From assembly GCA_040398005.1 (NCBI GenBank), contig JBBAUX010000002.1, positions 64,001 to 128,000 on the forward strand: DNA of 64,000 bases, in the 5' to 3' direction. Made by a program: the position numbers and the translations under genes. The notes under the pieces were generated by a model that was given only the letters and a program-made list of their open reading frames with translations, searched no databases and was not told where the DNA came from. Below, in pieces: positions 35,497-64,000 of this stretch; positions within the stretch are counted from its first letter, which is position 1, and every line of letters starts with the position of its first letter. This DNA is from Opitutales bacterium. GTDB taxonomy: Bacteria; Verrucomicrobiota; Verrucomicrobiia; Opitutales; UBA953.

Positions 35497-37212
35497 GTGA
35501 CGACCGCCGACGATTTCGTCATTCAATTCATACAAGACAAGGGACTGGTGTCCTCTGCTCTAGTATCCGAGGCCCGCGAGGCGCTTGGTGCTATCCCCGA
35601 TGGCCAGAATCCCGATACCCTAGCGATCGCGAAATTAGTTGAGACCGGTAAGGTCACTTGGGCGGTTATCTGCAAAGCGCTGGGTAAGGAATTCGACATG
35701 GAAGTTGTCGACTTGGCCCAGGTTTCACCGGCGGAAGAATTACTCAAACTGATTAGTCGCGAGCAGGCTGAGCGTCATAATATTTTACCACTGCAAATGG
35801 ATGGCGTTGAGCTGCTCGTTGCGATTTCGGATCCGCTCGATACCGAAACGCTCGATTCACTTTCGCGTGTCTTAAAACTTACTTTAAATCCAAAACTCGC
35901 ACCGCCTGATGAACTGAAGGCCGCAATCAATCGCTGTTACAGTGGGGGCGCGGTGAATGTATCGTACGAGGATGTTTTTGGTAAGAGTGAAGATGGTATG
36001 TCGGTCGATCTTCCTCAAGGGGGCGAAATTAAAGAAGACGACGCTCCCATTATTCGCTATGTGAATTCCCTGATTGTGGATGCGATTCGTCGTAAGGCTT
36101 CAGATATTCACCTAGAACCTTTAGAAAAAAGATTCCGTGTTCGTTTCCGTATCGATGGTGTGCTCCAAGAAATGAAAGGCCCACCTAAGCGCTTACAAGC
36201 TTCCGTCATTTCCCGCCTTAAATTAATGGCCGAAGTGTCACTCGCGGAAAAACGTATTCCGCAAGACGGACGTATTCAGGCTCGGACGGGTGGACGCGAT
36301 ATCGACTTACGTGTATCCGTTTTACCAACCGTTTATGGCGAATCAATCGTCATGCGTATTCTCGATAAAGAAGGACTGAAATTAGGTCTTCCTGAATTGG
36401 GGTTCTTCGCGGATGACCAAGCTAAATTCCAAGGTTTAATTTCAGGTTCGGATGGTGTGTTCCTCGTGACGGGTCCAACCGGTTCTGGTAAATCGACCAC
36501 CCTTTATTCAGCGCTGAATTATATTAATAAGCCCGACCGTAAAATTATTACCGTTGAAGATCCTGTTGAGTATCAGATGGCTGGTATCAATCAGGTCCAA
36601 GTAAAACGTGATGTGGGAATGACTTTCGCCGCCGCGCTTCGTGCGATGTTACGTCAGGCACCAAACATTGTGATGATTGGTGAAATTCGAGATTTAGAAA
36701 CCGCTGAAATTTCGATTAACGCGGCGCTTACTGGTCACATGGTATTCTCAACCTTGCACACTAATGATTCCGTCAGTGCGGTGACTCGTCTCGTCGATAT
36801 CGGCGTGAAACCTTTCTTAGTTTCAGCCGCGCTACGTGGAGCTCTCGCTCAACGTCTCGTTCGTCGCGTTTGTCAGTCTTGCGCTCAACCTTATAAACCC
36901 ACGGCGAAAGAACTTTATACGATTGGTATGTCCGAACAGGATATTGCGGGTGCCACGCCGATGAAGGGTGCGGGCTGTCCAAAATGTAATGAACGCGGTT
37001 ACAAAGGCCGTCGTGGCGTCTTCGAACTTTTTGTCATCACTGAAGAAGTCCAAGAAATGATTTACGGAGGTGCCACACTCGTCGCACTCCGTCGCAAAGC
37101 GCGCGAAGCCGGCATGCGCACCATGCGTGAGGACGGCCAACGTAAGGTCGCTTCGGGTATGACCACCATCGAAGAAGTCATGGGCGCCACCGTCGCGGAC
37201 GACGTTATATAA
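35497..37212 (+). CDS. Type IV pilus/T2SS assembly ATPase (PilB/GspE family), copy 1
   Basis: [48 protein letters not shown], two CxxC motifs. Confidence 0.92.
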   Translation: MTTADDFVIQFIQDKGLVSSALVSEAREALGAIPDGQNPDTLAIAKLVETGKVTWAVICKALGKEFDMEVVDLAQVSPAEELLKLISREQAERHNILPLQMDGVELLVAISDPLDTETLDSLSRVLKLTLNPKLAPPDELKAAINRCYSGGAVNVSYEDVFGKSEDGMSVDLPQGGEIKEDDAPIIRYVNSLIVDAIRRKASDIHLEPLEKRFRVRFRIDGVLQEMKGPPKRLQASVISRLKLMAEVSLAEKRIPQDGRIQARTGGRDIDLRVSVLPTVYGESIVMRILDKEGLKLGLPELGFFADDQAKFQGLISGSDGVFLVTGPTGSGKSTTLYSALNYINKPDRKIITVEDPVEYQMAGINQVQVKRDVGMTFAAALRAMLRQAPNIVMIGEIRDLETAEISINAALTGHMVFSTLHTNDSVSAVTRLVDIGVKPFLVSAALRGALAQRLVRRVCQSCAQPYKPTAKELYTIGMSEQDIAGATPMKGAGCPKCNERGYKGRRGVFELFVITEEVQEMIYGGATLVALRRKAREAGMRTMREDGQRKVASGMTTIEEVMGATVADDVI

Positions 37213-37221
37213 TTAATAAAA

Positions 37222-38292
37222 ATGGCCTACGATCTCAACCAACTCCTGGAAGCCATGATTGAAAATGGGGCCTCCGATCTCCATTTGCACGTGGGTCGTG
37301 CGCCTTGTTTGCGCGTGAGTGGAAGTGTGATTTCAGTCGAAGGTGCGGCCTTAACCTCTGAAGATACTAAAAATATTGTTAACTCCATTATTCCTGCGGT
37401 GCATGTCGACCGACTGAAACAAGAGGGTGGTTGCGATTTCGGTATGTCTTTCCGAGGTAAAGCGCGGTTACGCGTTAATGTCCACCGTGCCAAAGGAGAG
37501 TTGGGAATAGTTCTCCGTTTAATTCCTGCAGATATTTACACGCTCGAAGACTTACGTCTACCGCCGATTGTAAAAGACTTACTGCGCCGTCCGCGTGGTT
37601 TGATTTTAGTAACCGGCCCGACGGGTTCCGGTAAATCTACCACACTCGCCTCGATGGTGAATTGGATTAACGACAATATCGATGGACACATTGTAACTAT
37701 CGAAGACCCGATTGAATATTTCCATACACACAAAGGTTGTGTAGTTACCCAGCGCGAAGTGCATAGTGACGTTCCCTCGTTTGCCGAAGGCGTACGGGCG
37801 TCTCTGCGTCAAGATCCTGATGTCATTCTTATCGGTGAAATGCGTGACTTAGAAACCATTGAAGCCGCCATCACCGCTGCGGAAACGGGTCACCTCGTTT
37901 TTGCGACACTCCATACCACGGGTGCCGCGCGGACGGTAGACCGTATCTTAGATGCGTTTCCTGCGGGTGCGCGTGATCAGATTCGCGTGCAGCTTTCTTC
38001 CTCAATCATTGCGATCATCTCACAGTGCTTACCGCGCACCGTGGATGATAAACGTGTGGCCGCTTACGAAATCATGGTTCGCACGGATGGTATTGCCGCG
38101 AAGATTCGTGAAAATAAAACTTTCCAAATTACCTCCGACATCGAAACGGGCGGCGGTCGCGGCATGCGCACGCTTGATGCTGATTTATTAGCGCTGTTTA
38201 ATCAGGGTAAAATCAGTGAAGACGAGGTGATGACTTATTGCCAAGACAGCGAAATGGTCCGTTCGCGTCTTAACCCTAAAACCAAAATTTAA
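37222..38292 (+). CDS. pilT: Type IV pilus retraction ATPase
   Basis: [51 protein letters not shown]. Confidence 0.88.
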
Positions 38293-38306
38293 ACTTACTA
38301 TTTACC

Positions 38307-39992
38307 ATGTTTGAAGACCACAGCGATATCATGCGCGACATTGCCATCGAGGGAAAACTCCTCGATCAAACGCAAGCAGATGAAATATGGGAGTCCCACG
38401 CGACCACCGGAAAGTCTTTCGCTGACAGCTTGGTCGACGCCAACCTCGCCGATCGTCCGTCTTTACTCCAAGCAATTGCGGATCACTTAGGCGTTCAATT
38501 TTATTCAGTTATTCCGACCACCGATCAGGATGATATCTCTAAAGTTCTCAAACCAGCCCAAGCCCACAAGTACGCGGTAGTTCCCGTGGCTGATGAAGCC
38601 GGTAAATTAACCTTCGTTGCGAAAGATCCTTTCAACTCAGCCATTGTCAATGAGCTGACCTTTATCCTGAAGCGCGAAAATATTGAGTTGGCCGTCGCTG
38701 ATCCCGATATGGTCGATGCAGCGGTCATCCGTGTTTATGGTGAGCCGTCTGCTTCATCGATGGATGACTTGTTGGGTGAGTTTGACCAAATTGATACAGC
38801 TGCAGTGGCCGATGATGATGTCGCCAGTGCCGCCAGCCAGGCTCCGATTATTCGTTTCGTTGATTTAGTTCTCCAGGAAGCAGTGAAAGCCAAAGCGTCC
38901 GATATTCACTTCGAACCTTTTGAAGACCAATTCCGTATTCGTTACCGTATCGACGGCTCGCTCTACGAGATGGCTCCACCGCCTAAGAATTTAGCCAATG
39001 CGGTGACGGCTCGGGTAAAAGTTTTATCGGCACTCAATATTGCCGAGCGAAGAATCCCCCAAGATGGACGGATTAAAACTACAATTAGCGGTCGCCAAAT
39101 CGATCTTCGTGTTTCGACTCTGCCCACCCAATTTGGTGAGTCGGTCGTGTTGCGTATTCTCGATAAGACGGTCGTCAATCTGAGCCTCGATGCGCTCTCG
39201 ATGCAGGAAGATATCAAAGAGGGCATTCGCGCGATGGTGAACAAGCCTAATGGTATTTTTATTGTTACTGGTCCTACCGGCTCCGGTAAAACCACCACAC
39301 TTTATTCTGCGTTGCGTGAAGTAAATACGGAGGATGTAAAAATTCTCACGGCGGAAGATCCCGTTGAATACGAAGTCGAAGGTATCATGCAGGTTCCGAT
39401 TAATCACCAAGTCGGCTTAACTTTCGCCGCCGCGCTTCGTTCGTTCCTTCGTCAAGATCCTGATACCATCATGGTGGGAGAAATTCGCGATATCGAGACC
39501 GCACAAATTGCCGTGCAAGCATCGCTCACCGGCCACGTGGTTTTATCCACACTCCACACCAATGACGCTCCAGGTGCGGTGACTCGACTGATCGATATGG
39601 GCCTCGAGCCATTCTTAATTTCTGCATCCATCGAAGGGATTTTAGCTCAGCGATTACTGCGTCGCATTTGCAAAACCTGTCGTACCGCTTACGAGCCAGA
39701 TAAAGAAGTCATCAGCATGCTCGACGTCGACGCTCTCGAAATCGCCAACAAGAAATTCTACTTCGGTAAAGGTTGTCCTGATTGTAATCGCTCGGGTTAT
39801 AAAGGCCGCCAAGGCCTCTTTGAATTAATGACCATTTCGGACTCGATTCGCACTCTCATCACTCAGCGCGCTCCGACCTTAGTACTGAAGCAAAAGGCTA
39901 TTGAAGTCGGTATGCGTCCCTTGCGCGATGACGGCTTACGCTGTATTTTCGATGGTTTAACTACTATTGAAGAAGTTCTGAAATACACCTAA
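38307..39992 (+). CDS. Type IV pilus/T2SS assembly ATPase (PilB/GspE family), copy 2
   Basis: [44 protein letters not shown], two CxxC motifs. Confidence 0.92.
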
Positions 39993-40013
39993 TCTTTCTA
40001 CCCAACCACTCCC

Positions 40014-41255
40014 ATGCCTGAATACAAGTATAACGCTATTGATCGTAATGGTGCGCAAACCACCGGTAAGATCGAAGCCCCGAACGACGAACAAGCTCGT
40101 CAGAAATTAATGGCTCGTGGCCTCATGGTCACTTCCTTGGTTGGTGATACGGGCGCGGCGAAGCCAGTGGTTGCCGCAGCTGCTGCCCCTAAAAAATCTT
40201 TTAGTTTCGGCTCTAAAGTTTCTGCGGAAGACGTCACCACGATGACCCGTCAGTTAGCGACGCTGATTGTGGCTGGCTTACCTTTATTGCGTGCGTTAGA
40301 ATTGATTCACAAACAAGAACGCAATCCTCACTTCAAAGAAGTCTTGGGTATGATTGCGGATAGCGTTTCCCAAGGTAATAATTTATCTGAGGCGCTTGCC
40401 GCTCACCCTAAAGTTTTTGACCGTCTCTTCATTAACATGGTGAAAGCAGGGGAGGCCGGTGGCGTGCTTGATAAAGTATTAGATCGTCTAGCAAAGTTCC
40501 GTGAAAAAGCACAACGCATTCAGAAGAAAGTTAAATCAGCGATGGTTTATCCAGGCGTGGTTGTTTCTGTGGCCGTGGTCATCGTCTATATTTTGATGGT
40601 TAAAGTCGTTCCCTCGTTCCAAAAACTTTTGAGTAGTCAGAAGTTGGCTTTACCGCCTTTAACCCAGTTGGTGGTCGGTATTTCTACCGCCTTGACTGAT
40701 TACTGGTATGTGACGCCGTTCGTTATCTTCGGTATCTACTACGGCATGAAACTTTGGCTATCGTCTACGAAAGGTAAGGAACTTTTCGACCGGATTATTT
40801 TCAAGTTACCCAAAATTGGTGGCTTCGTCCAAATTGTTTCTGTTTCGCGCTTCGCTCGTACCTTCGGAACTTTGATGGCTTCAGGCGTTCCCATTCTCCA
40901 AGCTATTAATATTACACGTGATACCTTAGACAACGTCGTCATCGCTAATTCCTTAGAGCGCGTGCATGATCGCGTGCGTGATGGTGAGCCGCTTTCTGTG
41001 CCTCTCGAACAAACCGGAGTGTTCCCTCAAATGGTTACTTCGATGATTCAAGTCGGCGAAGAAACTGGTCAGCTACCTGAGATGTTAAATCGCGTGGCCG
41101 ATATTTATGACGAAGAAGTGGACAACGCGGTGACCGCACTCACTTCGATTATTGAACCAGTACTCATCGTATTCCTCGCGGTCGTGGTTGGTGCCATCGT
41201 TCTTGCGATGTTCCTGCCGCTCATTGCGCTGATCACGAAGATGACGGGTGGATAA
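40014..41255 (+). CDS. pilC: Type IV pilus/T2SS inner-membrane platform protein (PilC/GspF)
   Basis: RQLATL..AGLPL, AGE.GG.L, AMVYP, GEETGQL, IIEP, MFLP. Confidence 0.9.
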   Translation: MPEYKYNAIDRNGAQTTGKIEAPNDEQARQKLMARGLMVTSLVGDTGAAKPVVAAAAAPKKSFSFGSKVSAEDVTTMTRQLATLIVAGLPLLRALELIHKQERNPHFKEVLGMIADSVSQGNNLSEALAAHPKVFDRLFINMVKAGEAGGVLDKVLDRLAKFREKAQRIQKKVKSAMVYPGVVVSVAVVIVYILMVKVVPSFQKLLSSQKLALPPLTQLVVGISTALTDYWYVTPFVIFGIYYGMKLWLSSTKGKELFDRIIFKLPKIGGFVQIVSVSRFARTFGTLMASGVPILQAINITRDTLDNVVIANSLERVHDRVRDGEPLSVPLEQTGVFPQMVTSMIQVGEETGQLPEMLNRVADIYDEEVDNAVTALTSIIEPVLIVFLAVVVGAIVLAMFLPLIALITKMTGG

Positions 41256-41285
41256 TTAGGCCCTGAATTCATTGCCCAAAAAAGG

Positions 41286-41321
41286 AGCCGGCATACGTAC
41301 CCCTACGTATGCCGGCTTTTT
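41286..41321 (+). terminator. Intrinsic terminator after pilC (14-bp perfect stem)
   Basis: AGCCGGCATACGTA-CCCC-TACGTATGCCGGCT followed by TTTT; A-run on the 5' side, so possibly bidirectional. Confidence 0.85.
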
Positions 41322-41465: not shown

Positions 41466-41543
41466 TGGGTGCAGGGGTAGGATTTGAACCTACGACCTTC
41501 AGGTTATGAGCCTGACGAGCTAACCGGGCTGCTCCACCCTGCA
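41466..41543 (-). tRNA. tRNA-Met (CAT), initiator type
   Basis: Reverse complement TGCAGGGTGGAGCAGCCCGGTTAGCTCGTCAGGCTCATAACCTGAAGGTCGTAGGTTCAAATCCTACCCCTGCACCCA; A11:U24 pair, CTCATAA loop, TTCAAAT T-loop. Confidence 0.93.
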
Positions 41544-41729: not shown

Positions 41730-43004
41730 ATGTCAGATACCCCTCCCAATCCTCCCTCGGCAGAAGTTGATGATGCTATCGATGCACAAGGCGAGCAAGT
41801 GGCCATTCGTCAAAAGCAGGGCTTCTGGGCACGCCTTGGTGGCGGTGGTTTGATGGTTTCGTTGATGATTCACTTTTTCTTGGTCGTCGTCGCGGTGTTC
41901 TGGGTAGTTTCAACCTGGACCGATTCCACTAAACGCGAGCCCACTCAATTTGCAACGGGTGCGGGTGGTGGTAACGATGGTGATCGTGCGAAAATTTATC
42001 AGCATCGCCTGCAGCAAAAAAATATGAAGTCGTTGGCCAAGAGCACACCGCGCCTGACTTCTAAAAATCCGAACTCCACGATTTCACTGCCCGACATTCC
42101 TAATGTGTCTACCTCGTCGATGGTCTCAGGCGCTACGATGGGTGGTTCCTCTAAAGGCTTCGGCGGCGGTTCAGGTGGCGGAATAGGCTCAGGCCAAGGT
42201 CTGGGTGTAGGTGGTGGTAAAAATCCAGTCGGAAAATTTAAGCCCGTGATGGGCGCTAAAATCCAGGCCACAAAAGTGGCGGTGTTTATGGATTCCTCGA
42301 GATCCATGGCTCGTTATTTAGACCGAGTTGAGAGCGAAATCCGTAAACAATTCCCGGATGCCGACGTCTTTATGTACAGCGGAATTTGGACCAACACGAT
42401 TGGTAACGTGGTGATGGGCGGCAGTAAATATAAGGGCACCTACAGCGATAAAACCAAAGGCGGCGCGAAAAATACCGATATCGAAAAATTAACCACCAAG
42501 GGTAAGAGTATTTTCAGAGAGCATGATAAGAGTTTTCAGACGGGCTGCGTGGGCGCATGGGTTGATATTATGAAGAATCAGCGAGAGTATGATGCTTTAA
42601 TTATTTTCTCGGACTTCCAAGATGGCGTTACGCAATACCGCGAAAAAGACAAAAATGGCGGAGCTAAGTATTACTATGGTAGCGATAAGTTTGAAACCGT
42701 TTATGCTGATGGCGTGAGAGCAAAACATCCTACCGATGATCGTACCGAACAAGAGAAGGGTTGGGAAAAGGAATGGTTGAAGGTATTTGGCGAAGCGAAT
42801 AGCGGTAAAGGACCTCGACTCTATTTATTTTCAACTGAGACAGAGCCACAGGCTATTTTTGAAAAATGCGTAAAGGCATCGGGTGGACAAAGTAAAATGG
42901 TGGAATGGTTGAGAACTGGAGGAAATCCACCAGCCGTTACCGAAGAAGAACCAACTGAAATTAAAAAGAGTTCGGTAAGCACACCAGCTAACACCAATCG
43001 ATAG
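41730..43004 (+). CDS. Membrane-anchored protein: SxxxH TM helix, Gly-rich linker, vWA-like domain (paralog 1)
   Basis: VSLMIHFFLVVVAVFWVV; GFGGGSGGGIGSGQG; AVFMDSSRSM (MIDAS DxSxS); IIFSD. Confidence 0.7.
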   Translation: MSDTPPNPPSAEVDDAIDAQGEQVAIRQKQGFWARLGGGGLMVSLMIHFFLVVVAVFWVVSTWTDSTKREPTQFATGAGGGNDGDRAKIYQHRLQQKNMKSLAKSTPRLTSKNPNSTISLPDIPNVSTSSMVSGATMGGSSKGFGGGSGGGIGSGQGLGVGGGKNPVGKFKPVMGAKIQATKVAVFMDSSRSMARYLDRVESEIRKQFPDADVFMYSGIWTNTIGNVVMGGSKYKGTYSDKTKGGAKNTDIEKLTTKGKSIFREHDKSFQTGCVGAWVDIMKNQREYDALIIFSDFQDGVTQYREKDKNGGAKYYYGSDKFETVYADGVRAKHPTDDRTEQEKGWEKEWLKVFGEANSGKGPRLYLFSTETEPQAIFEKCVKASGGQSKMVEWLRTGGNPPAVTEEEPTEIKKSSVSTPANTNR

Positions 43005-43077
43005 TTAGAAGGTATTAGGTCAATGTGCCTAGTACGCTAATCTTGTCGGTCGGCTGTGCGGCGTTGAATGGTCATGT

Positions 43078-44142
43078 ATGTCGCATGGTACCGTTCGTCA
43101 GCGAAAATCACCACAGACCTGGAAGGGTTTTGTGACTTCGCTCTTTGTGCATGGAATTTTATTAGGCTTAGCTTGTTGGATCGTCTTGGCTTCACCAATC
43201 GCTGTGAAAATACATCAAGACCCTGATTTATTTGTCACGGCGAGTGGTTCAGCAAAGCCGGCGACCACCACGCAGGCATATACCATTAAAAATTCTCCAA
43301 AAAGATTTCAGGGGGCGACTCGTCTTTCCGTAAATAATAATAACGCCTCCATCGCTTTGCCCGAGCTGACCGGTATTTCCGATATGATGAGTTCTAGTTT
43401 TAGTATGGAGAAGGGGATGGGGCGTGAGGGACTCGGCCAGGGCCAGGGAATGTCGTTCGGGGGTATGGTTGACTCGCGGACCTTAGTTGGAAAATTCGTG
43501 ATGGGTGCCTCCATTCGCGCCCAACGGATTGCCGTGTATCTAGACTGTTCCGGATCCATGCGACCTTACTTAACGCAAGTGACTCAAGAAATTAAAAATC
43601 AATTTCCTGATGCGGATGTATTTCGATTTGATGGAGCCCGCGTCGTCAGTTTGGAAAATAATATTGTCTACGGAAAAACTTTTCATGGCGACGCACCACG
43701 CTTAACCGAAGCGCCTACGCAAACGATTGATTCTGAATTAACCTCAGAAGGTCGCCAGCTTTTGAGTCGCATTCGGACGGCTTGTGAAAAGGGTTCCTTG
43801 GGTGCGTGGATTGATCGATTGTTAGCGGAAGACTATGACGCGCTTGTGGTATTTTCGGACTTTCAAGACGGCGTGAGAATTTACGAAGAAAATAATAAAG
43901 GGGCCCCCACCTTGATTTATTCCGATAGTAATTACCATAAGGTCGGAGCGGTTATGCCCGTTAAACCTTGGCAGGGTAAGTGGATAGACGCCTTTACAAA
44001 AGGGGCTACAGGTCACGGACCTAAACTGTATCTATTTTCTATTCATCAGCCCCCCCAGGGCTTATTAAAGGCCTGCGTGGAGGCCTCGGGCGGCAGTTCA
44101 GTATCCGTGAGCTGGCTTAAGTCGGGTCAACGGCCTGATTAG
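43078..44142 (+). CDS. Membrane-anchored protein: SxxxH TM helix, linker, vWA-like domain (paralog 2)
   Basis: TSLFVHGILLGLACWIVL; AVYLDCSGSM; shares QFPDADVF, GAW.D, YDAL..FSDFQDGV, GP.LYLFS, ASGG with paralog 1. Confidence 0.7.
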   Translation: MSHGTVRQRKSPQTWKGFVTSLFVHGILLGLACWIVLASPIAVKIHQDPDLFVTASGSAKPATTTQAYTIKNSPKRFQGATRLSVNNNNASIALPELTGISDMMSSSFSMEKGMGREGLGQGQGMSFGGMVDSRTLVGKFVMGASIRAQRIAVYLDCSGSMRPYLTQVTQEIKNQFPDADVFRFDGARVVSLENNIVYGKTFHGDAPRLTEAPTQTIDSELTSEGRQLLSRIRTACEKGSLGAWIDRLLAEDYDALVVFSDFQDGVRIYEENNKGAPTLIYSDSNYHKVGAVMPVKPWQGKWIDAFTKGATGHGPKLYLFSIHQPPQGLLKACVEASGGSSVSVSWLKSGQRPD

Positions 44143-44185
44143 GCTTGGCGGTTGCACCCCGGCTGAAGTTGGTTTGGATAAAGTG

Positions 44186-44605
44186 ATGGAAATATTTAAG
44201 GCAGAGTACCGTGCGAATTTTTCGGATACCGATGCTGCGGGCATTATCCATTTCTCGACCATCTTCTTCTGGGTCGAAGCCACCGAGGAGGCCTTGTATC
44301 GACAACTTAAATTGCCGTTTCTTAAATCTGACGGAAATAAGTTAACGGGTTTTCCTCGGGTACGCGTGGAGTGCGATTATCTCGCCCCTATTTATCGTGA
44401 AGACCTAGTGGTGATTGAATTATCGCCCCGTGAGCTAGGGGATAAAAAAATTATTTGGAATTTTAAGGCCAAGGTCGGAGACAAAGAAGTAGCCAATGGG
44501 GCATTGACGACGGTCTACGCTTGGCGCGAAGGGCAGGGGCCGATGTCTGCGGCACTCGTACCGTTAGAAACCAAGACTACATTTGAAAATTTTTTTAAGG
44601 CGTAA
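44186..44605 (+). CDS. Acyl-CoA thioesterase (4HBT/YbgC hot-dog family)
   Basis: F.DTDAAGIIHF, CDYLAP. Confidence 0.82.
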   Translation: MEIFKAEYRANFSDTDAAGIIHFSTIFFWVEATEEALYRQLKLPFLKSDGNKLTGFPRVRVECDYLAPIYREDLVVIELSPRELGDKKIIWNFKAKVGDKEVANGALTTVYAWREGQGPMSAALVPLETKTTFENFFKA

Positions 44606-44614
44606 CCGTGTGTG

Positions 44615-45511
44615 ATGAGTGATTCCGGTCTGATCCATAATTTTAGTCATCAGGCCCTGGGCACACGATTCTGGATCCGTATTGCCGATGAGGACTATGC
44701 CTTCGCCGAACGCGCTGCTGAGTCTGTTTTCTTTACCCTCGATCGTCTAGACTCGGATTTAAATGGAGTTGGTTCGGATGGAGCCCTTGCGCTGATTAAT
44801 CAATTACCGGAAGGTGAAATGATTTCAGTCAGCGAAGACTTTGGCGCGCTTTGGAAATTTTCTGAAACTTTTAATAAAGAAACCGCGGGGGTTTTTGATG
44901 TATCAGCTGGAAGTCTCTTCCGTTATTGGACCGAGCGCGGTTCCGATGAATTTAATCCTGATGATCCCGTTTGGGAAAAAACTTTTCAGGATTACAAAAG
45001 CGGAAAATTTTCTCTAGAAGGTAATGAACTCACCCGCCAACAGGGCGGAAGCGTTATCGACTTAAGCGGCATTATTCACGGGTATGCCTGTGATCGCATG
45101 GCAGAAATGTTAGAAAGTAATTGGGGTATTCACCGGGCGATTTTAGGTGCCGGCAGTAATGTCGTTTTGGCATTGGATCCTCCAGGAGAAGCCCGAGGTT
45201 GGCGGGTGGGACTAGGTCGCACCCTAGAGCTTAAGTTATGTCGTACGGCACTCGCCAGTAAGCCGAATAACTGCATGAAGTCCTGTTTGGTGAATCCTTT
45301 GACGGGTCTCGCAGCGCCTTTAAGTCATGAAGCTATTCGTGCAGTGGCAAATACCGCATTAGAAGCCGAGGCATTGACGACGGTGGGGGTCTTGCTGTCT
45401 CAATCCGAAATCGAAAGTTTACTCACGCGAGTTTTAACCCGCGGACTCTGGCTGCCCGGCGGCGACTGTCTCGGGATGTTTAAGAATCTGGATTTAACGA
45501 GTCGAAACTAA
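44615..45511 (+). CDS. ApbE-family FAD:protein FMN transferase-like protein, divergent
   Basis: ALGT, T.GVFDVS.G.L...W, IDLSGI..GYA.D, GWRVG, NPLTG. Confidence 0.7.
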   Translation: MSDSGLIHNFSHQALGTRFWIRIADEDYAFAERAAESVFFTLDRLDSDLNGVGSDGALALINQLPEGEMISVSEDFGALWKFSETFNKETAGVFDVSAGSLFRYWTERGSDEFNPDDPVWEKTFQDYKSGKFSLEGNELTRQQGGSVIDLSGIIHGYACDRMAEMLESNWGIHRAILGAGSNVVLALDPPGEARGWRVGLGRTLELKLCRTALASKPNNCMKSCLVNPLTGLAAPLSHEAIRAVANTALEAEALTTVGVLLSQSEIESLLTRVLTRGLWLPGGDCLGMFKNLDLTSRN

Positions 45512-59737: not shown

Positions 59738-60181
59738 TTATTCTGGTTCAGCAACCGAGAAGGTGATGTTGCTGATGTCGGCGCGTGCTAAAATATCGAG
59801 AACATTGATGACTCTCTCATAACGGGCCGCTTCCTCGGCTTGTACGGTGATCAGAAGTTTAGTCTTAGATTGTTTAGCGGCTTGGGCCATCTTGGTCATC
59901 TCATTGAAGAGACCTTCCAGTTCGCGGTCCTGCGGCTGACCTACCGGATCTTCGTTGATGGTGATTTGTCCATTCTCTGCGACACCGATGGTAACTTCAT
60001 CAGGCATTTCGGTTTCTTTGGCAGTCTCTGCATTGCCTGGTAGAGTCGTTTTTAATTCATGTTCCACTTTGACGGCACCGGCCATGACCATGAAGAAAAG
60101 CATGATGACGAAGACCACGTCGATCATTGGGGCGATTTGGAATCCGGCATCCGATGGAGTTTCTTGAGGGGCGAGGCGCAT
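59738..60181 (-). CDS. ExbD/TolR family protein, copy 1
   Basis: IAPMIDVVFVIMLFFMV TM helix with conserved Asp; periplasmic domain. Confidence 0.9.
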   Translation of the reverse strand: MRLAPQETPSDAGFQIAPMIDVVFVIMLFFMVMAGAVKVEHELKTTLPGNAETAKETEMPDEVTIGVAENGQITINEDPVGQPQDRELEGLFNEMTKMAQAAKQSKTKLLITVQAEEAARYERVINVLDILARADISNITFSVAEPE

Positions 60182-60183
60182 TT

Positions 60184-60624
60184 TTATTCGTCGCGGTTGA
60201 GGCCGGAGAAGGCGATGTTATCGATGCCAGCTTCCGCACCCCATTCGAGTGCTTTGGAAATAAATTTGGCCTGACATTGGCGATCGGCGCGAATGAGCAG
60301 TCGGAATTTTTCGTTGGTACCTTTGCGGGCAGCGAGTTCTTTAGAAATGCCGTCCTTGTCGTTGATATCTAGCTCGCGGTCATCGAGTTTGTATTTGGCC
60401 TGACCCGTACTCGCGTCCCAAGAAATATTAATCAAACCGGCAGCAGCTTTGTCGTCGCGTTTTACCCCATGGACGGCGACGGGGAGTTTAATATTTTTAT
60501 CGACCTTCAAGACTTGGGCTGAGGTGATGGACATGAAGAAAATCAGTAAGACCAGGAGCACGTCGATCATCGGTGCTACTTGGAATTCTGGTTCTCCGTC
60601 CCCGCCTCCGCCTCCTCCTGCCAT
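60184..60624 (-). CDS. ExbD/TolR family protein, copy 2
   Basis: VAPMIDVLLVLLIFFM; LLIRAD. Confidence 0.9.
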   Translation of the reverse strand: MAGGGGGGDGEPEFQVAPMIDVLLVLLIFFMSITSAQVLKVDKNIKLPVAVHGVKRDDKAAAGLINISWDASTGQAKYKLDDRELDINDKDGISKELAARKGTNEKFRLLIRADRQCQAKFISKALEWGAEAGIDNIAFSGLNRDE

Positions 60625-60652: not shown

Positions 60653-61438
60653 TTAAGCGGAGGGTGGAGTGCTGGAGGCATTCCAATCAGGCTTAGCGGC
60701 GTAGATTTCGTCATCACCGATGGCGCGACCTTGGACTTCGTCGTAAGGGAAGGAACGGAATAATCCAGTGACGATTTCTTGAACGTCATGAATTCCTTTT
60801 TGAATACGATTACGTAAGAGGTAGTAGCAAATGAACGCAGGGATTGCGATGAAGAGACCCGAAGCGGTTGCCACGAGAACTTCGCCGATCGCACCAGCGA
60901 GCTGTGAAGGGTCGCCTACGCCTGATGAACCAAGCTTATCAAACGCCTTCATCATACCAGTCACGGTGCCGGTGAGACCAATCATCGGAGTACAGACTCC
61001 AATCACTGAGAGGTAAGATGCACGGCCCATGAGGTCGCCCTGGATGCGAGAAACTTCAGAGATGATCGCTTCTTCAGTCATGACTTTGCCGTCGGGTGCG
61101 AGAGCCACACCAGCGCGAACGACTTCGGCGACGGGTGAGCCTGCGCTTTTAGCGAAGTTGTAGGCACCGACGTAATCACCACGCTTGAAGAGCTCGCGTA
61201 ATTGGGTGACGTGGCTGGCCGGATAAAGTTTTTGTGCGCTGGTGCGGATGGTACCATCAACGATGAACCAGATCATGGCGACCGAGCATAGAGTGATCGG
61301 GTACATGACCCAGCCACCTTCAACGAAGAGGTGCATCATGGTTTTTTCTTTAACGCCGGCAGCTTCTTGAGCGCAGGCAAGGATGGTCATCATTCCGAGG
61401 AAGGCCATCGTGAGGAGGGGGAGGCGGATTGTCTTCAT
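60653..61438 (-). CDS. MotA/TolQ/ExbB proton channel protein
   Basis: GGWVMYP, PMIGLTGTVTGM, GEVLVATASGL.IAIPA; signal-like N-terminus from ATG 61438. Confidence 0.92.
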   Translation of the reverse strand: MKTIRLPLLTMAFLGMMTILACAQEAAGVKEKTMMHLFVEGGWVMYPITLCSVAMIWFIVDGTIRTSAQKLYPASHVTQLRELFKRGDYVGAYNFAKSAGSPVAEVVRAGVALAPDGKVMTEEAIISEVSRIQGDLMGRASYLSVIGVCTPMIGLTGTVTGMMKAFDKLGSSGVGDPSQLAGAIGEVLVATASGLFIAIPAFICYYLLRNRIQKGIHDVQEIVTGLFRSFPYDEVQGRAIGDDEIYAAKPDWNASSTPPSA

Positions 61439-61494
61439 GGTAAATAAGGGGTGTTGGATTTGATTTAGGTTGAGATTAAAAAGGGGGCAAGGGT

Positions 61495-62511
61495 TCACTT
61501 GCTCATTTCCTGAGGTTTTTCCTCTGCTGCGTCCGTAGTGGGTTTTACAGGGGCTTCGGGGATGAATTCGGCATCCTTAATCTTACCGGCATCGGCTTCA
61601 GCTTCGAGGCGTTCCTCTTTAGGCAGAAGTTTTTTGGCTTCTTCGGCTTCTTTGGAAAGAGGGTAGTTGGTGATGAGGTTACGGAGGTAGCGATTGGAAA
61701 CTTCTTCGAGCTTTTGCTCCTTGGTGGTTGGACCATCCATGCCGCGGAAGGCTTTGGCGGCGCCTAAAAGTGCTTTGGGGATTTGTTCGACTTGGGAACC
61801 GTAGAAAACAGGAACACGTAAAAAGGTGTTCATCGCATTTTCATATTTTTTAGTTACGAGCAGGGAACTTCCTTTGAGAATATGTAAGCGAGCGAGAATT
61901 TCTACGTCGTCGATATTCTTAATGAGCTCAGTGGATTCGGTAATGACTTTTTCGTAGTCAGCCTTGCGGTAGCTTTGAACGAGTCGGGCTAATTTAATTT
62001 TGGTGCTGAGTTCAGGCTGGGTACCATCATCGGCGCGTTCGAGGTTTTCTAAGAAACTCGAAATCGCGGCATCGTTCTCGAGTCGATCCAACGCATCTAA
62101 TTTAATCATCGATGCTTTTAACCACCAGGAACCTGGAACTTTTTTTAGTGGTTCGAAGAATTTAATCACGGGCTCAATTTCATCGAGAGCCAGGTTGGGT
62201 TCGCCGCGGCTGACATAGATTTGGGCTTGAGCAATTTTTTCGGGTTGGGCCCAGACGATGCCTTCCACTTCACTGATTTTTTTGGTTAAAACCATGTCGA
62301 CGTCACCTTGGCGACTGGTGCGTTCAATCGTTCCCTTGGTCGTACTGATAATCGCCTTCTTCGGATCAACGAGAGGTTTGGGTGGTAGAGACTTGTCCAT
62401 TTTGAATGGATCATTCACATCCCAGCGTTCGTTATTTTTGAAGAAGAGGGTTTGGGCTTCGCTGACCAGTGGGGCGAAGAGCATGAAGAGAAATAGATAA
62501 GCAGCTCGCAT
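61495..62511 (-). CDS. Exported TPR-containing protein
   Basis: Signal peptide (..VSEA-Q), TPR-like pairs, C-terminal LITNYP.S.EA motif. Confidence 0.7.
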   Translation of the reverse strand: MRAAYLFLFMLFAPLVSEAQTLFFKNNERWDVNDPFKMDKSLPPKPLVDPKKAIISTTKGTIERTSRQGDVDMVLTKKISEVEGIVWAQPEKIAQAQIYVSRGEPNLALDEIEPVIKFFEPLKKVPGSWWLKASMIKLDALDRLENDAAISSFLENLERADDGTQPELSTKIKLARLVQSYRKADYEKVITESTELIKNIDDVEILARLHILKGSSLLVTKKYENAMNTFLRVPVFYGSQVEQIPKALLGAAKAFRGMDGPTTKEQKLEEVSNRYLRNLITNYPLSKEAEEAKKLLPKEERLEAEADAGKIKDAEFIPEAPVKPTTDAAEEKPQEMSK

Positions 62512-62515
62512 GGTC

Positions 62516-64000
62516 TTAGAGTGATAGCATTAAGATTTTAGCTTCTTTGGCCTCCGGAGTGTCCTTGATGCGGTCCTTGGAGAGCATTTCCGCGAGGAGC
62601 AATTTAGCTTCAGGTTTTTGACCTAATTTTCCGGCTAAAATTTTGGCCGTACCGAGATAGGATTTGGCTGACCAGAATTCATACTTCTTCCAGGTTTGGT
62701 AACAGCGGCGATAGAAAGCGACCGCTTCGGCAGAGTTGCCTTGGCGCTCTTCCATGAGTCCAATCCAGTAAAGACAGCCCGCGGTAGTCTCACCTTTCCA
62801 CTCCTTGGTCTTAACAATCTCTTCAAAGCCTTTACGCGCTTCTTCGTAGCGTCCTAATTCTGCTAAAGCACGAGCGTGAGCAAATTTGATATCCTTTTCT
62901 TTGGACATCACGATGTTGTTGTCCGTGGCCTCATTACAGAGGTCGAGTGCTTCTTTAAATTTACCTTGGTTGAGGCGAACTTCTGCCATGCCTGCAAAAC
63001 CGAAGTCAGCATACTCCGATGAACGATGGTGCTCGAGCAGGTATTGATAAAGCCCTTCGGCGGCTGGATAATTTCTTTTCGCCACGAGATGATCTCCCAC
63101 TACACCGAGGAGGGTGGAGCTGAGTTCTTCGGCTTTATAGTTATTGGAAATCTTGCGGAAGTAGAGGTCGGTCTTTTCCGGATTGCGTAAGAAGGTTGAG
63201 AGCTGGGCGAGGGCGAAATAGCCGCGCGCTTGGGCGATTAAGGAGTCTTTGTTTTGCTCGAGTTTAAGTAACTGAGACATTTCCTGTTCAGCTTTCTCAG
63301 CGGTATAGGCCTTAGGGTCGAGAGCGATACCCGGCTTGACACGTTTTACCTTACGCGAGATTTTTTCAGCTAAGAAAATAATCAACTTCTCGGAGCCTTC
63401 TTGTTTACGGTCATTGATGGATTCGGCGACGGACTTTGAAAGCATCGCGAGCGCTTCAGTTTTTGCGGCCTGGATGCTGACTTGTCGGTCCTTCTCGATT
63501 TGATCCAGTTCCGCGGCGAGCACGTCGGAGAGTTTAGCCACTTCAGCCTTAGCAGCAGCTAATACGCCCGGGGTGGTGCTATCTGCTTTGGTTAAATCAT
63601 CTACCTTCCGACGGGCCACTGCTAAGAGTGCACTGTATTTCTTCTGGGTGGCTTCGGTGCGTTGCGAGAATTCTGGCTTATCGCCCATGCGCTCAGTCGC
63701 TTTAATGATCTCGTAGAGGTACGACATCGCCTTGGGGCTATTGTGGTCCCAATCGTAGATTTCTTGATAAAGGTTTTTAAGTTTTTGATGTTCGCCGCGA
63801 CCCGAGAGAAGTTTGTTGAGTTGTTGCACGACAAATTCCAAAGCACTGGCATTATTTTTACTCGATTTCGTAGCAGCAATGTAAGCCTCGATAGATTTTA
63901 CGATATGGACTTCTTTTTCTTTTTCGAGGCGTTGTTTTTCTAAAGTATATTTCTTTTTAGCCGCAGGCTCCCCGTTGGTTTTGATATTATTATCCGCCGT
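62516..64000 (-). CDS. Large TPR-repeat protein, 5' end outside the window
   Basis: Multiple TPR motifs; I checked by hand that the frame stays open from 63841 to the window edge. Confidence 0.75.
   Translation of the reverse strand, partial: TADNNIKTNGEPAAKKKYTLEKQRLEKEKEVHIVKSIEAYIAATKSSKNNASALEFVVQQLNKLLSGRGEHQKLKNLYQEIYDWDHNSPKAMSYLYEIIKATERMGDKPEFSQRTEATQKKYSALLAVARRKVDDLTKADSTTPGVLAAAKAEVAKLSDVLAAELDQIEKDRQVSIQAAKTEALAMLSKSVAESINDRKQEGSEKLIIFLAEKISRKVKRVKPGIALDPKAYTAEKAEQEMSQLLKLEQNKDSLIAQARGYFALAQLSTFLRNPEKTDLYFRKISNNYKAEELSSTLLGVVGDHLVAKRNYPAAEGLYQYLLEHHRSSEYADFGFAGMAEVRLNQGKFKEALDLCNEATDNNIVMSKEKDIKFAHARALAELGRYEEARKGFEEIVKTKEWKGETTAGCLYWIGLMEERQGNSAEAVAFYRRCYQTWKKYEFWSAKSYLGTAKILAGKLGQKPEAKLLLAEMLSKDRIKDTPEAKEAKILMLSL

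Follow-up and report, generated by a model that had tools for sequence, protein, structure and literature searches.

Two tandem vWA-headed, TonB/TolA-like proteins of an Opitutales bacterium as candidate arms of a TPR-TPR-ExbB-ExbD-ExbD motor

Introduction

Which motor, if any, drives a pair of proteins that are anchored in the membrane like TonB and TolA and end in a vWA-like domain (vWA, von Willebrand factor A)? The question is raised by a stretch of 64,000 nucleotides from an Opitutales bacterium (GenBank assembly GCA_040398005.1, contig JBBAUX010000002.1, positions 64,001 to 128,000 of the forward strand), which was analysed as a whole and is called the window. The two proteins are encoded by open reading frame (ORF) A (41730..43004, + strand, 424 aa) and ORF B (43078..44142, + strand, 354 aa), which follow each other with a gap of 73 bp. 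A preliminary description of the window had placed a tandem of TonB/TolA-like paralogs here; both ORFs are present as described, on the + strand, and are paralogous, with 34% identity over 366 columns (E 8e-58).

Sequence comparison and analogy with known systems suggest that A and B are, on balance, probably force-transmitting arms of a proton motor, TPR-TPR-ExbB-ExbD-ExbD, encoded 15.6 kb downstream. The parts of this reading differ in firmness. The three-part build of anchor, stalk, and predicted vWA head is almost certain, coupling of the pair to a motor is highly probable, and it is likely that this motor is the one in the window. At the level of sequence, the build, the conservation of the anchor and of the metal site, and the link in gene order between the stalk and this type of motor are established.

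Anchor, stalk, and head

Protein A consists of an acidic and Pro-rich N-terminal tail, a membrane helix with an SxxxH motif, a disordered stalk, a divergent vWA-like head, and a short tail, and its paralog B of a helix with S21 and H25, a shorter stalk, and a vWA-like head with D156-x-S158-x-S160, S240, and D261. A single hydrophobic segment is present in each protein (19-residue hydropathy at best 2.66 in A and 2.21 in B; next best 0.80 and 0.89), in agreement with the single N-terminal transmembrane (TM) helix described before, and the motifs SLMIH in A (S44/H48) and SLFVH in B (S21/H25) are found in the translations. In A, alignment, the AlphaFold2 model, and hydropathy place the helix at residues 42-60 (41853..41909, + strand), with S44 and H48 as a Ser-His pair of the TonB/TolA type. 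The main homolog alignment comprised 60 sequences, namely A, B, and 58 of 120 listed matches. S44, H48, D188, S190, S192, and D295 are invariant in 60/60, and Ser and His stay constant while nearby helix residues vary. A broad alignment of 74 rows, used for the counts on stalk and anchor, retains the anchor His in 73, so the His is conserved among homologs, a point on which the preliminary description had made its proposal depend.

Two other readings of the N-terminus were considered. A cleaved signal peptide, the possible objection named beforehand, was rejected in view of the long N-terminal tail of A and of the scarcity of an A-x-A motif past the helix, found in 0/65 A-type and 1/48 B-type sequences (1 of 113 homologs). 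A lipoprotein reading for B is unlikely, as a Cys at H+8 occurs in only 35/48 sequences and is always followed by four further hydrophobic residues.

The stalk of A covers residues 62-166 (41913..42227, + strand) and contains the conserved F74 as a candidate motor box (H+26), an R108-LT...SLP121 motif, and a Gly-rich stretch, all in a region of low model confidence. Both translations contain the linker described earlier, RLT/RLS...ISLP/IALP followed by a Gly-rich stretch, over 109 residues in A and 97 in B, and the predicted local distance difference test (pLDDT) values stay below 50 over most of residues 73-166 in the AlphaFold2 model of A. In vWA force transducers the motor box is described as a beta-strand about 20-25 residues past the His (PMC12204202, in the portions of that text available). 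Here, F or M at H+26 is conserved in 72/74 rows, at about that position, and the AlphaFold2 model of A has no strand there.

The head of A comprises residues 167-400 (42228..42929, + strand), with D188-x-S190-x-S192, C273 at the likely Thr place of a metal ion-dependent adhesion site (MIDAS), and D295, as judged from alignment, the AlphaFold2 model, and structural search. The metal-site motifs had been reported correctly as DxSxS and a later FSD: they read DSSRS in A (D188-S192) and DCSGS in B (D156-S160), with the FSD at D295 and D261. Because neither Pfam nor NCBIfam gave a match for A or B, the vWA assignment draws on relatives and on the AlphaFold2 model of A. In that model, residues 38-67 form a helix, confidence is low over 73-166, and an alpha/beta domain is predicted with confidence at about 167-400; a single-sequence model of the head (pLDDT 45.6) was set aside. 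A wide structural search with the A model returned mostly vWA domains at the top, the best being an archaeal VWA2 (Z 8.2, root-mean-square deviation 3.5, 124 aligned), and further matches at Z 7.5-7.7 were Rpn10, TFIIH, Sec24, and Ku80, several of which are vWA folds. Foldseek, one of the checks proposed for the head, found nothing at E<=0.001 with this model, the whole-model VIA count gave no chain at Z>=8, and a PDB sequence search matched Gly-Ser linkers only. In Atlas neighbours scoring 0.95-0.96, as many as 87% of the members bear VWA families, and in hhalign the profile was joined at 98.6% to a vWA protein recognised by Pfam, with the DxSxS helix inside the aligned part.

We therefore take the head as a divergent vWA domain with beta-rich insertions, as the model and relatives suggest. 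In a textbook vWA domain of the MIDAS type, DxSxS, then a Thr, and then an Asp make up one metal site. By alignment, the likely Thr position holds Ser in 37, Cys in 20, and Asp in 3 of 60 sequences (Cys in A, Ser in B), and judged from sequence the metal site is incomplete by that standard. As to the MIDAS vWA head of the preliminary description, DxSxS and Asp are invariant and the fold of the A model looks vWA-like, and the usual Thr appears to be replaced; the doubt that the C-terminal domain might be something other than vWA was not borne out.

Gene order links the stalk to one type of motor

Gene order in relatives supports the TPR-TPR-ExbB-ExbD-ExbD operon of the window as the motor, which is exactly the ExbB-ExbD-ExbD operon that had been named as candidate partner. 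In the following counts, family means the taxonomic family of the host and out-of-family means outside it. In 7/7 out-of-family ExbB orthologs (E<=1e-45, 251 genomes), the gene immediately behind the second ExbD encodes a protein with one helix that bears the His, the anchor being of the form S/T/A-x3-H in six and G-x3-H in one. From the side of the arms, all five out-of-family matches to the A/B profile in 151 genomes adjoin such an operon; one locus (L093) is common to both sets.

An order-wide sample of 151 genomes was also searched with a stalk-only profile. The stalk occurred in 38/151 genomes, and all 38 have this ExbD type; the ExbD itself is present in 90/151, and the 61 genomes devoid of it have no stalk (0/61). 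Outside the family, 27/57 stalk matches lie within 8 kb of this ExbD, in 22/31 genomes. Within it, the A/B profile matches in 61/61 genomes and ExbB in 59/61, and arm and motor are spaced by 16-21 kb in 25 of the 27 genomes whose listed matches shared a contig, a spacing most simply explained by shared gene order.

The candidate motor operon and other motors of the genome

The candidate operon reads TPR(1106)-TPR(338)-ExbB-ExbD-ExbD and occupies 59.7-63.8 kb on the - strand. It comprises the 3' part of a gene whose start lies outside the window and whose product is a TPR protein of 1106 aa (62516..64000; whole gene G000:C2:126516-129836), a gene for a 338-aa TPR-like protein (61495..62511), an ExbB/TolQ-family subunit (60653..61498, likely start 61435), and two ExbD copies (copy 2 at 60184..60624 and copy 1 at 59738..60181). 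From its conserved residues the motor looks intact: Asp21 is invariant in both ExbDs (37/37 aligned for copy 1, 30/30 for copy 2), and Ser51 in TM1, Thr157, Thr190, and Pro199 of ExbB, numbered from 61435, are invariant in 39/39. The available text of PMC12215075 ties such ExbB Ser, Thr, and Pro residues to Ser-His docking by cryo-electron microscopy (cryo-EM). The operon has no arm gene on either side, and no tonB lies beside it; the preliminary description had noted the missing tonB for the visible part at 59.7-61.4 kb, and the same holds beyond the window edge.

The host genome has four ExbB/TolQ genes in all. The three other motors are a TolQ-TolR-like operon (C1:187813), a bare ExbB-ExbD pair (C1:43516), and a TPR-ExbB-ExbD operon (C9:67765). 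The first carries its own SxxxH TolA-like gene (G000:C1:189102-189866, after the TolQ-TolR-like genes), whose product has no Pfam TonB_C or NCBIfam match, and the other two have no arm beside them; in the last (G000:C9:67765-71614, with a 914-aa TPR protein), ExbB is devoid of the TM1 Ser. The genome further contains one TonB_C protein, its sole TonB_C match and located elsewhere, one TonB-dependent receptor, and a single OmpA/Pal-like gene that stands alone on contig C7. A MoxR-vWA (Bat-type) system was rejected, as the MoxR AAA+ ATPase (PF07726) was not found in the 93.9%-complete host genome (control positive in 13/14).

A parallel with mucin utilization locus MUL1

The job of the machine might be to energise polymer uptake through the envelope on a scaffold formed by the two TPR proteins, as in MUL1 (mucin utilization), an idea that rests on analogy and that we consider possible rather than probable. 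In the available portions of the respective papers, mul1A is called a mucin transport gene (PMC12570417), and MUL1 and MUL2 are stated to mediate mucin transport and processing (PMC13174399). The 338-aa TPR protein matched the NCBIfam Mul1B model NF052542 with 20.1 bits (E 3e-4) and did not reach the curated cut-off of 75 bits; by sequence it is a distant Mul1B relative and not a member. Genes above the cut-off occur in 21/251 genomes, all in one family (f41). Ten of the 22 matches were fetched, and in 9/9 loci the Mul1B gene lies in an ExbB-ExbD-ExbD-large TPR-Mul1B operon with no arm. Profiles of those two TPR genes found the TPR genes of the window as best matches in the host genome (E 2e-4 for the 338-aa and 1e-5 for the 1106-aa protein), and hhalign aligned the 338-aa protein to the Mul1B-type profile at 97.6%. 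No paper tying MUL1 to ExbB/ExbD was found in the openly accessible literature, a scope that excludes the primary MUL1 paper.

The host genome encodes 6 sulfatases and 2 secretins, which fits polymer use without showing it. One secretin (975 aa) lies with three upstream genes, one of them likely PilM-like (G000:C3:63534-70213), and the group resembles the MUL2-type cluster in the available text of PMC13174399. In Mul1B-bearing genomes, dispersed arm-like proteins with a membrane helix devoid of the His were observed (L162, L164, L166, L168, and L171-L176); such helices are possibly a second docking code in that family.

Surroundings and relatives of the pair

Upstream of A, coaE is followed by pilB-pilT-pilB-pilC (35497-41255), with PilT flanked by two PilB/GspE-type ATPases. 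A strong terminator-like hairpin of 18 pairs (41282..41321, + strand) follows pilC and sets ORF A off from the pil genes, and a tRNA-Met gene lies in between on the opposite strand (41466..41543, - strand). An operon link between A/B and the pil genes was rejected on account of these two elements, and since they separate the two groups, standing next to pil genes is not enough to class the pair as pilus components. A promoter scan gave 1 site where 5.4 were expected. Downstream of B, a YbgC/FadM-like thioesterase gene (below cut-off) and an ApbE-like gene follow (44174-45511) with gaps of 31 bp and 6 bp; in most relatives, a membrane glycosyltransferase-like gene lies between them. In many bacteria, ybgC heads tol-pal operons.

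A and B are the sole members of their protein family in the host genome (1.44 Mb) and also its sole stalk-profile matches. Both are under purifying selection (six pairwise comparisons; nonsynonymous divergence, dN, 0.013-0.066, synonymous divergence, dS, 0.15-1.14). Because the B-type copies form a single well-supported clade (19 rows, support 99/98, in a tree of 63 head domains), the duplication is, by sequence, old and retained. The closest named relatives of the pair are freshwater Opitutales metagenome assemblies. Five records titled Akkermansia muciniphila, Enterobacteriaceae, or Klebsiella (L021, L028, L041, L054, and L059) look like mislabels, because their copies and gene order are typical of the Opitutales family of the host.

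In one lineage, A and B are separated by a stalk-less vWA head copy of about 250 aa whose start resembles a signal peptide (L057:11471-12226), at the same position in about 15 loci among L057-L077. The A orthologs of that lineage reach about 660 aa, with beta-rich insertions both within the vWA head and behind it, and a head swap was rejected for them on these grounds. Elsewhere among relatives, the same stalk does carry other heads, namely PA14-like, prenyltransferase-like toroid (L130), and DUF4159 (L133) domains. At L128, a vWA arm and a PA14-like arm with near-identical stalks stand in tandem behind the motor (L128:11229-14241), with an N-terminal, likely cytoplasmic SAM domain. Profile matches per genome range from 1 to 9 in the family of the host, which itself has only the two vWA arms.

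Discussion

If A and B are arms of the candidate motor, their action may be pictured by analogy with TonB. S44 and H48 would dock on helix TM1 of ExbB (compare PMC12215075 and PMC10907165, in their available portions). A short strand near F74 would bind the periplasmic dimer of ExbD1 and ExbD2, and the stalk would come under tension as protons drive the rotation. MIDAS vWA domains hold an acidic residue of a partner via Mg2+. The head might in this manner hold on to a periplasmic or outer-membrane partner by an acidic residue, and the first candidates for the target would be an outer-membrane channel or the two TPR proteins. That a target is pulled through a vWA grip is an inference from analogy in PMC12204202, as far as its text is available, as it is here.

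Several observations weigh against this assignment. Inside the family, 0/22 stalk matches lie within 8 kb of this ExbD, 0/12 motor loci have an arm beside the motor (two of them with less than 2 kb of downstream room), and none of 77 loci around family members contains ExbB or ExbD, while three further ExbB/TolQ genes are present in the genome. The sampled genomes are kin and not independent, so the co-occurrence counts are not a statistical test, and several stalk-profile rows were taken from motor-adjacent genes, which favours the count. In the proteins themselves, the S-x3-H-x6-L-x3-S motif is represented by its Ser and His alone, with A55 and V59 where Leu and the last Ser would stand, and the stalk is rich in Gly and has Pro at 6 of 109 residues, as against the rigid polyproline linker of TonB (PMC10907165, available text). 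The fold scores of the head are middling. An ExbB Trp touches the TonB His in E. coli (PMC12215075, available text); the conserved Trp of the window ExbB lies at Ser+5 instead of Ser+4, and the TolQ-like gene of the genome keeps the canonical S-x3-W spacing. The same Trp shift is seen in most ExbB orthologs that have an adjoining arm. As to polymer uptake, the Mul1B match stays below the cut-off and TPR proteins attract one another in searches, the stalk profile has no match in 5/5 genomes of the Mul1B-bearing genus, the arm-like vWA, PA14-like, and toroid proteins of the Mul1B-bearing family are devoid of the His, and no PA14-type sugar-binding head is kept in the host genome.

The four ExbB/TolQ genes leave room for the view that A and B are motor arms coupled to another, or to several, of the genome's motors (C1:187813, C1:43516, C9:67765), two of which have no adjoining arm. 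TonB and TolA are able to use each other's motors (PMC12215075, available text), and the docking spacing of the TolQ-like gene would suit. We regard this as quite unlikely, as all motor-linked stalk genes observed stand with TPR-TPR-ExbB-ExbD-ExbD (no dedicated search was made for other motor types), the TolQ-TolR-like operon owns a TolA-like gene, and the TonB_C protein and the one TonB-dependent receptor explain a classical Ton system. Alternatively, the pair might be accessories of type IV pili or of motility, for instance a vWA sensor or adhesin resembling PilY1 or CglB. Adhesins with vWA domains are known from pili and from gliding. A and B follow pilB-pilT-pilB-pilC, pilC or pilB is nearby in 39/77 related loci, the genome contains 9 pilin-like genes besides the 2 secretins, and gliding motility is suggested in the available text of PMC12204202. 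The terminator and the opposite-strand tRNA speak against it, as do members from another genus of the family, which sit away from pil genes (L080, L082, and L094), and the out-of-family stalk gene, which follows ExbD. This explanation is unlikely as a substitute, and it could be compatible with the favoured one, with a motor arm acting at a pilus or secretin.

The pair might also have left the motor operon to become passive, anchored, metal-dependent binders, with SxxxH as a relic or as a means of packing helices against each other, such as those of an A-B dimer. Invariance of Ser and His amid a varying helix, stalk motifs common to motor-linked genes in other families, and retention of the armless motor in 59/61 family genomes make this the least probable of the three, even though the pair is unlinked from any motor throughout the family and the stalk-less head copy between A and B (examples in L057-L074) implies that a head can exist anchor-free. 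Coupling of A and B to the window's own motor is the favoured reading.

The case of A and B suggests that arms can function without being encoded next to their motor. One motor of this type and two vWA arms have been retained in a streamlined genome, and the motor type is connected with a locus whose mucin-uptake phenotype is known. If the reading is true, a third kind of Ton/Tol-like machine could be tested from a minimal list of parts, and Verrucomicrobia with very few TonB-dependent receptors (one here) would have a candidate route of polymer uptake. Going further, Verrucomicrobia might run one general-purpose MUL1-like motor with swappable arms (vWA, PA14-like, toroid, DUF4159) encoded elsewhere and pull polymers without TonB-dependent receptors. 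The A-B pair would then be the core arm set, because it is the sole arm set found in this genome of 1.44 Mb and its two lineages have both been retained and are distinct. This generalisation is speculative, and we hold it to be rather doubtful.

Comparison with known systems

With TonB and TolA and their motors ExbB5-ExbD2 and TolQ5-TolR2, A and B have in common the three-part build and the Ser-x3-His on the helix, and their candidate partner keeps the Asp, Thr, Ser, and Pro seen in TonB-type cryo-EM structures (as given in the accessible literature). They differ in having no TonB_C domain, no Leu and last Ser of the SHLS motif, and no polyproline linker, and the system differs in its two different ExbDs and in the absence of a TonB-dependent receptor or tolB-pal nearby. 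In the parallel with the Akkermansia locus MUL1 (Mul1A, Mul1B), the operons around genes above the Mul1B cut-off contain the same five genes as the window, ExbB, two ExbDs, and a large and a small TPR gene, likewise with no adjoining arm. Unlike there, the gene order of the window is permuted, ExbB identity is about 30%, and the Mul1B match remains below the cut-off; the dispersed arm-like proteins of Mul1B-bearing genomes are, unlike A and B, devoid of the His.

The closest description is that of Williams-Jones et al. 2025 (PMC12204202), cited here from the available portions of its text. It defines vWA force transducers by a helix with the SHLS motif, which is predicted to dock on the motor by way of the His, by a motor box (also a prediction), by a disordered or Pro-rich linker some 100 residues long, and by a vWA fold replacing the TonB domain; the class was predicted from models and gene order, and these portions report no phenotype. 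Adjacency to TPR, tolQ-like, and two tolR-like genes is stated to occur "often" in bacteria of the Planctomycetes-Verrucomicrobia-Chlamydiae (PVC) group and is not required; such adjacency is absent here and from 12/12 family motor loci and present in out-of-family relatives. In the openly accessible literature, this was the only paper found on vWA together with ExbD in Verrucomicrobia, Planctomycetes, or Opitutales, and a term search of the main text of a 2026 review citing it returned no mention of vWA. The machine had been called uncharacterised in the preliminary description, which no longer holds, as the transducer class, the same motor type, and a tandem pair were all described in 2025.

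Compared by description, A and B lie 15.6 kb off the motor and outside its operon, unlike the pair at the Tichowtungia locus, where two such transducers stand in tandem by a TPR-tolQ-tolR-tolR operon. Their head is also too divergent for Pfam and has beta-rich insertions, and their linker is Gly-rich and not Pro-rich. Shared with the vWA transducers of Tichowtungia aerotolerans and other PVC bacteria are the Ser-His helix, the disordered linker of about 100 residues, the C-terminal vWA fold in place of TonB_C, the tandem arrangement, and the association with TPR, tolQ-like, and two different tolR-like genes. The class itself has thus been known since 2025, and what is added here is a counted case for a motor unlinked from its arms and a direct check of the parallel with MUL1.

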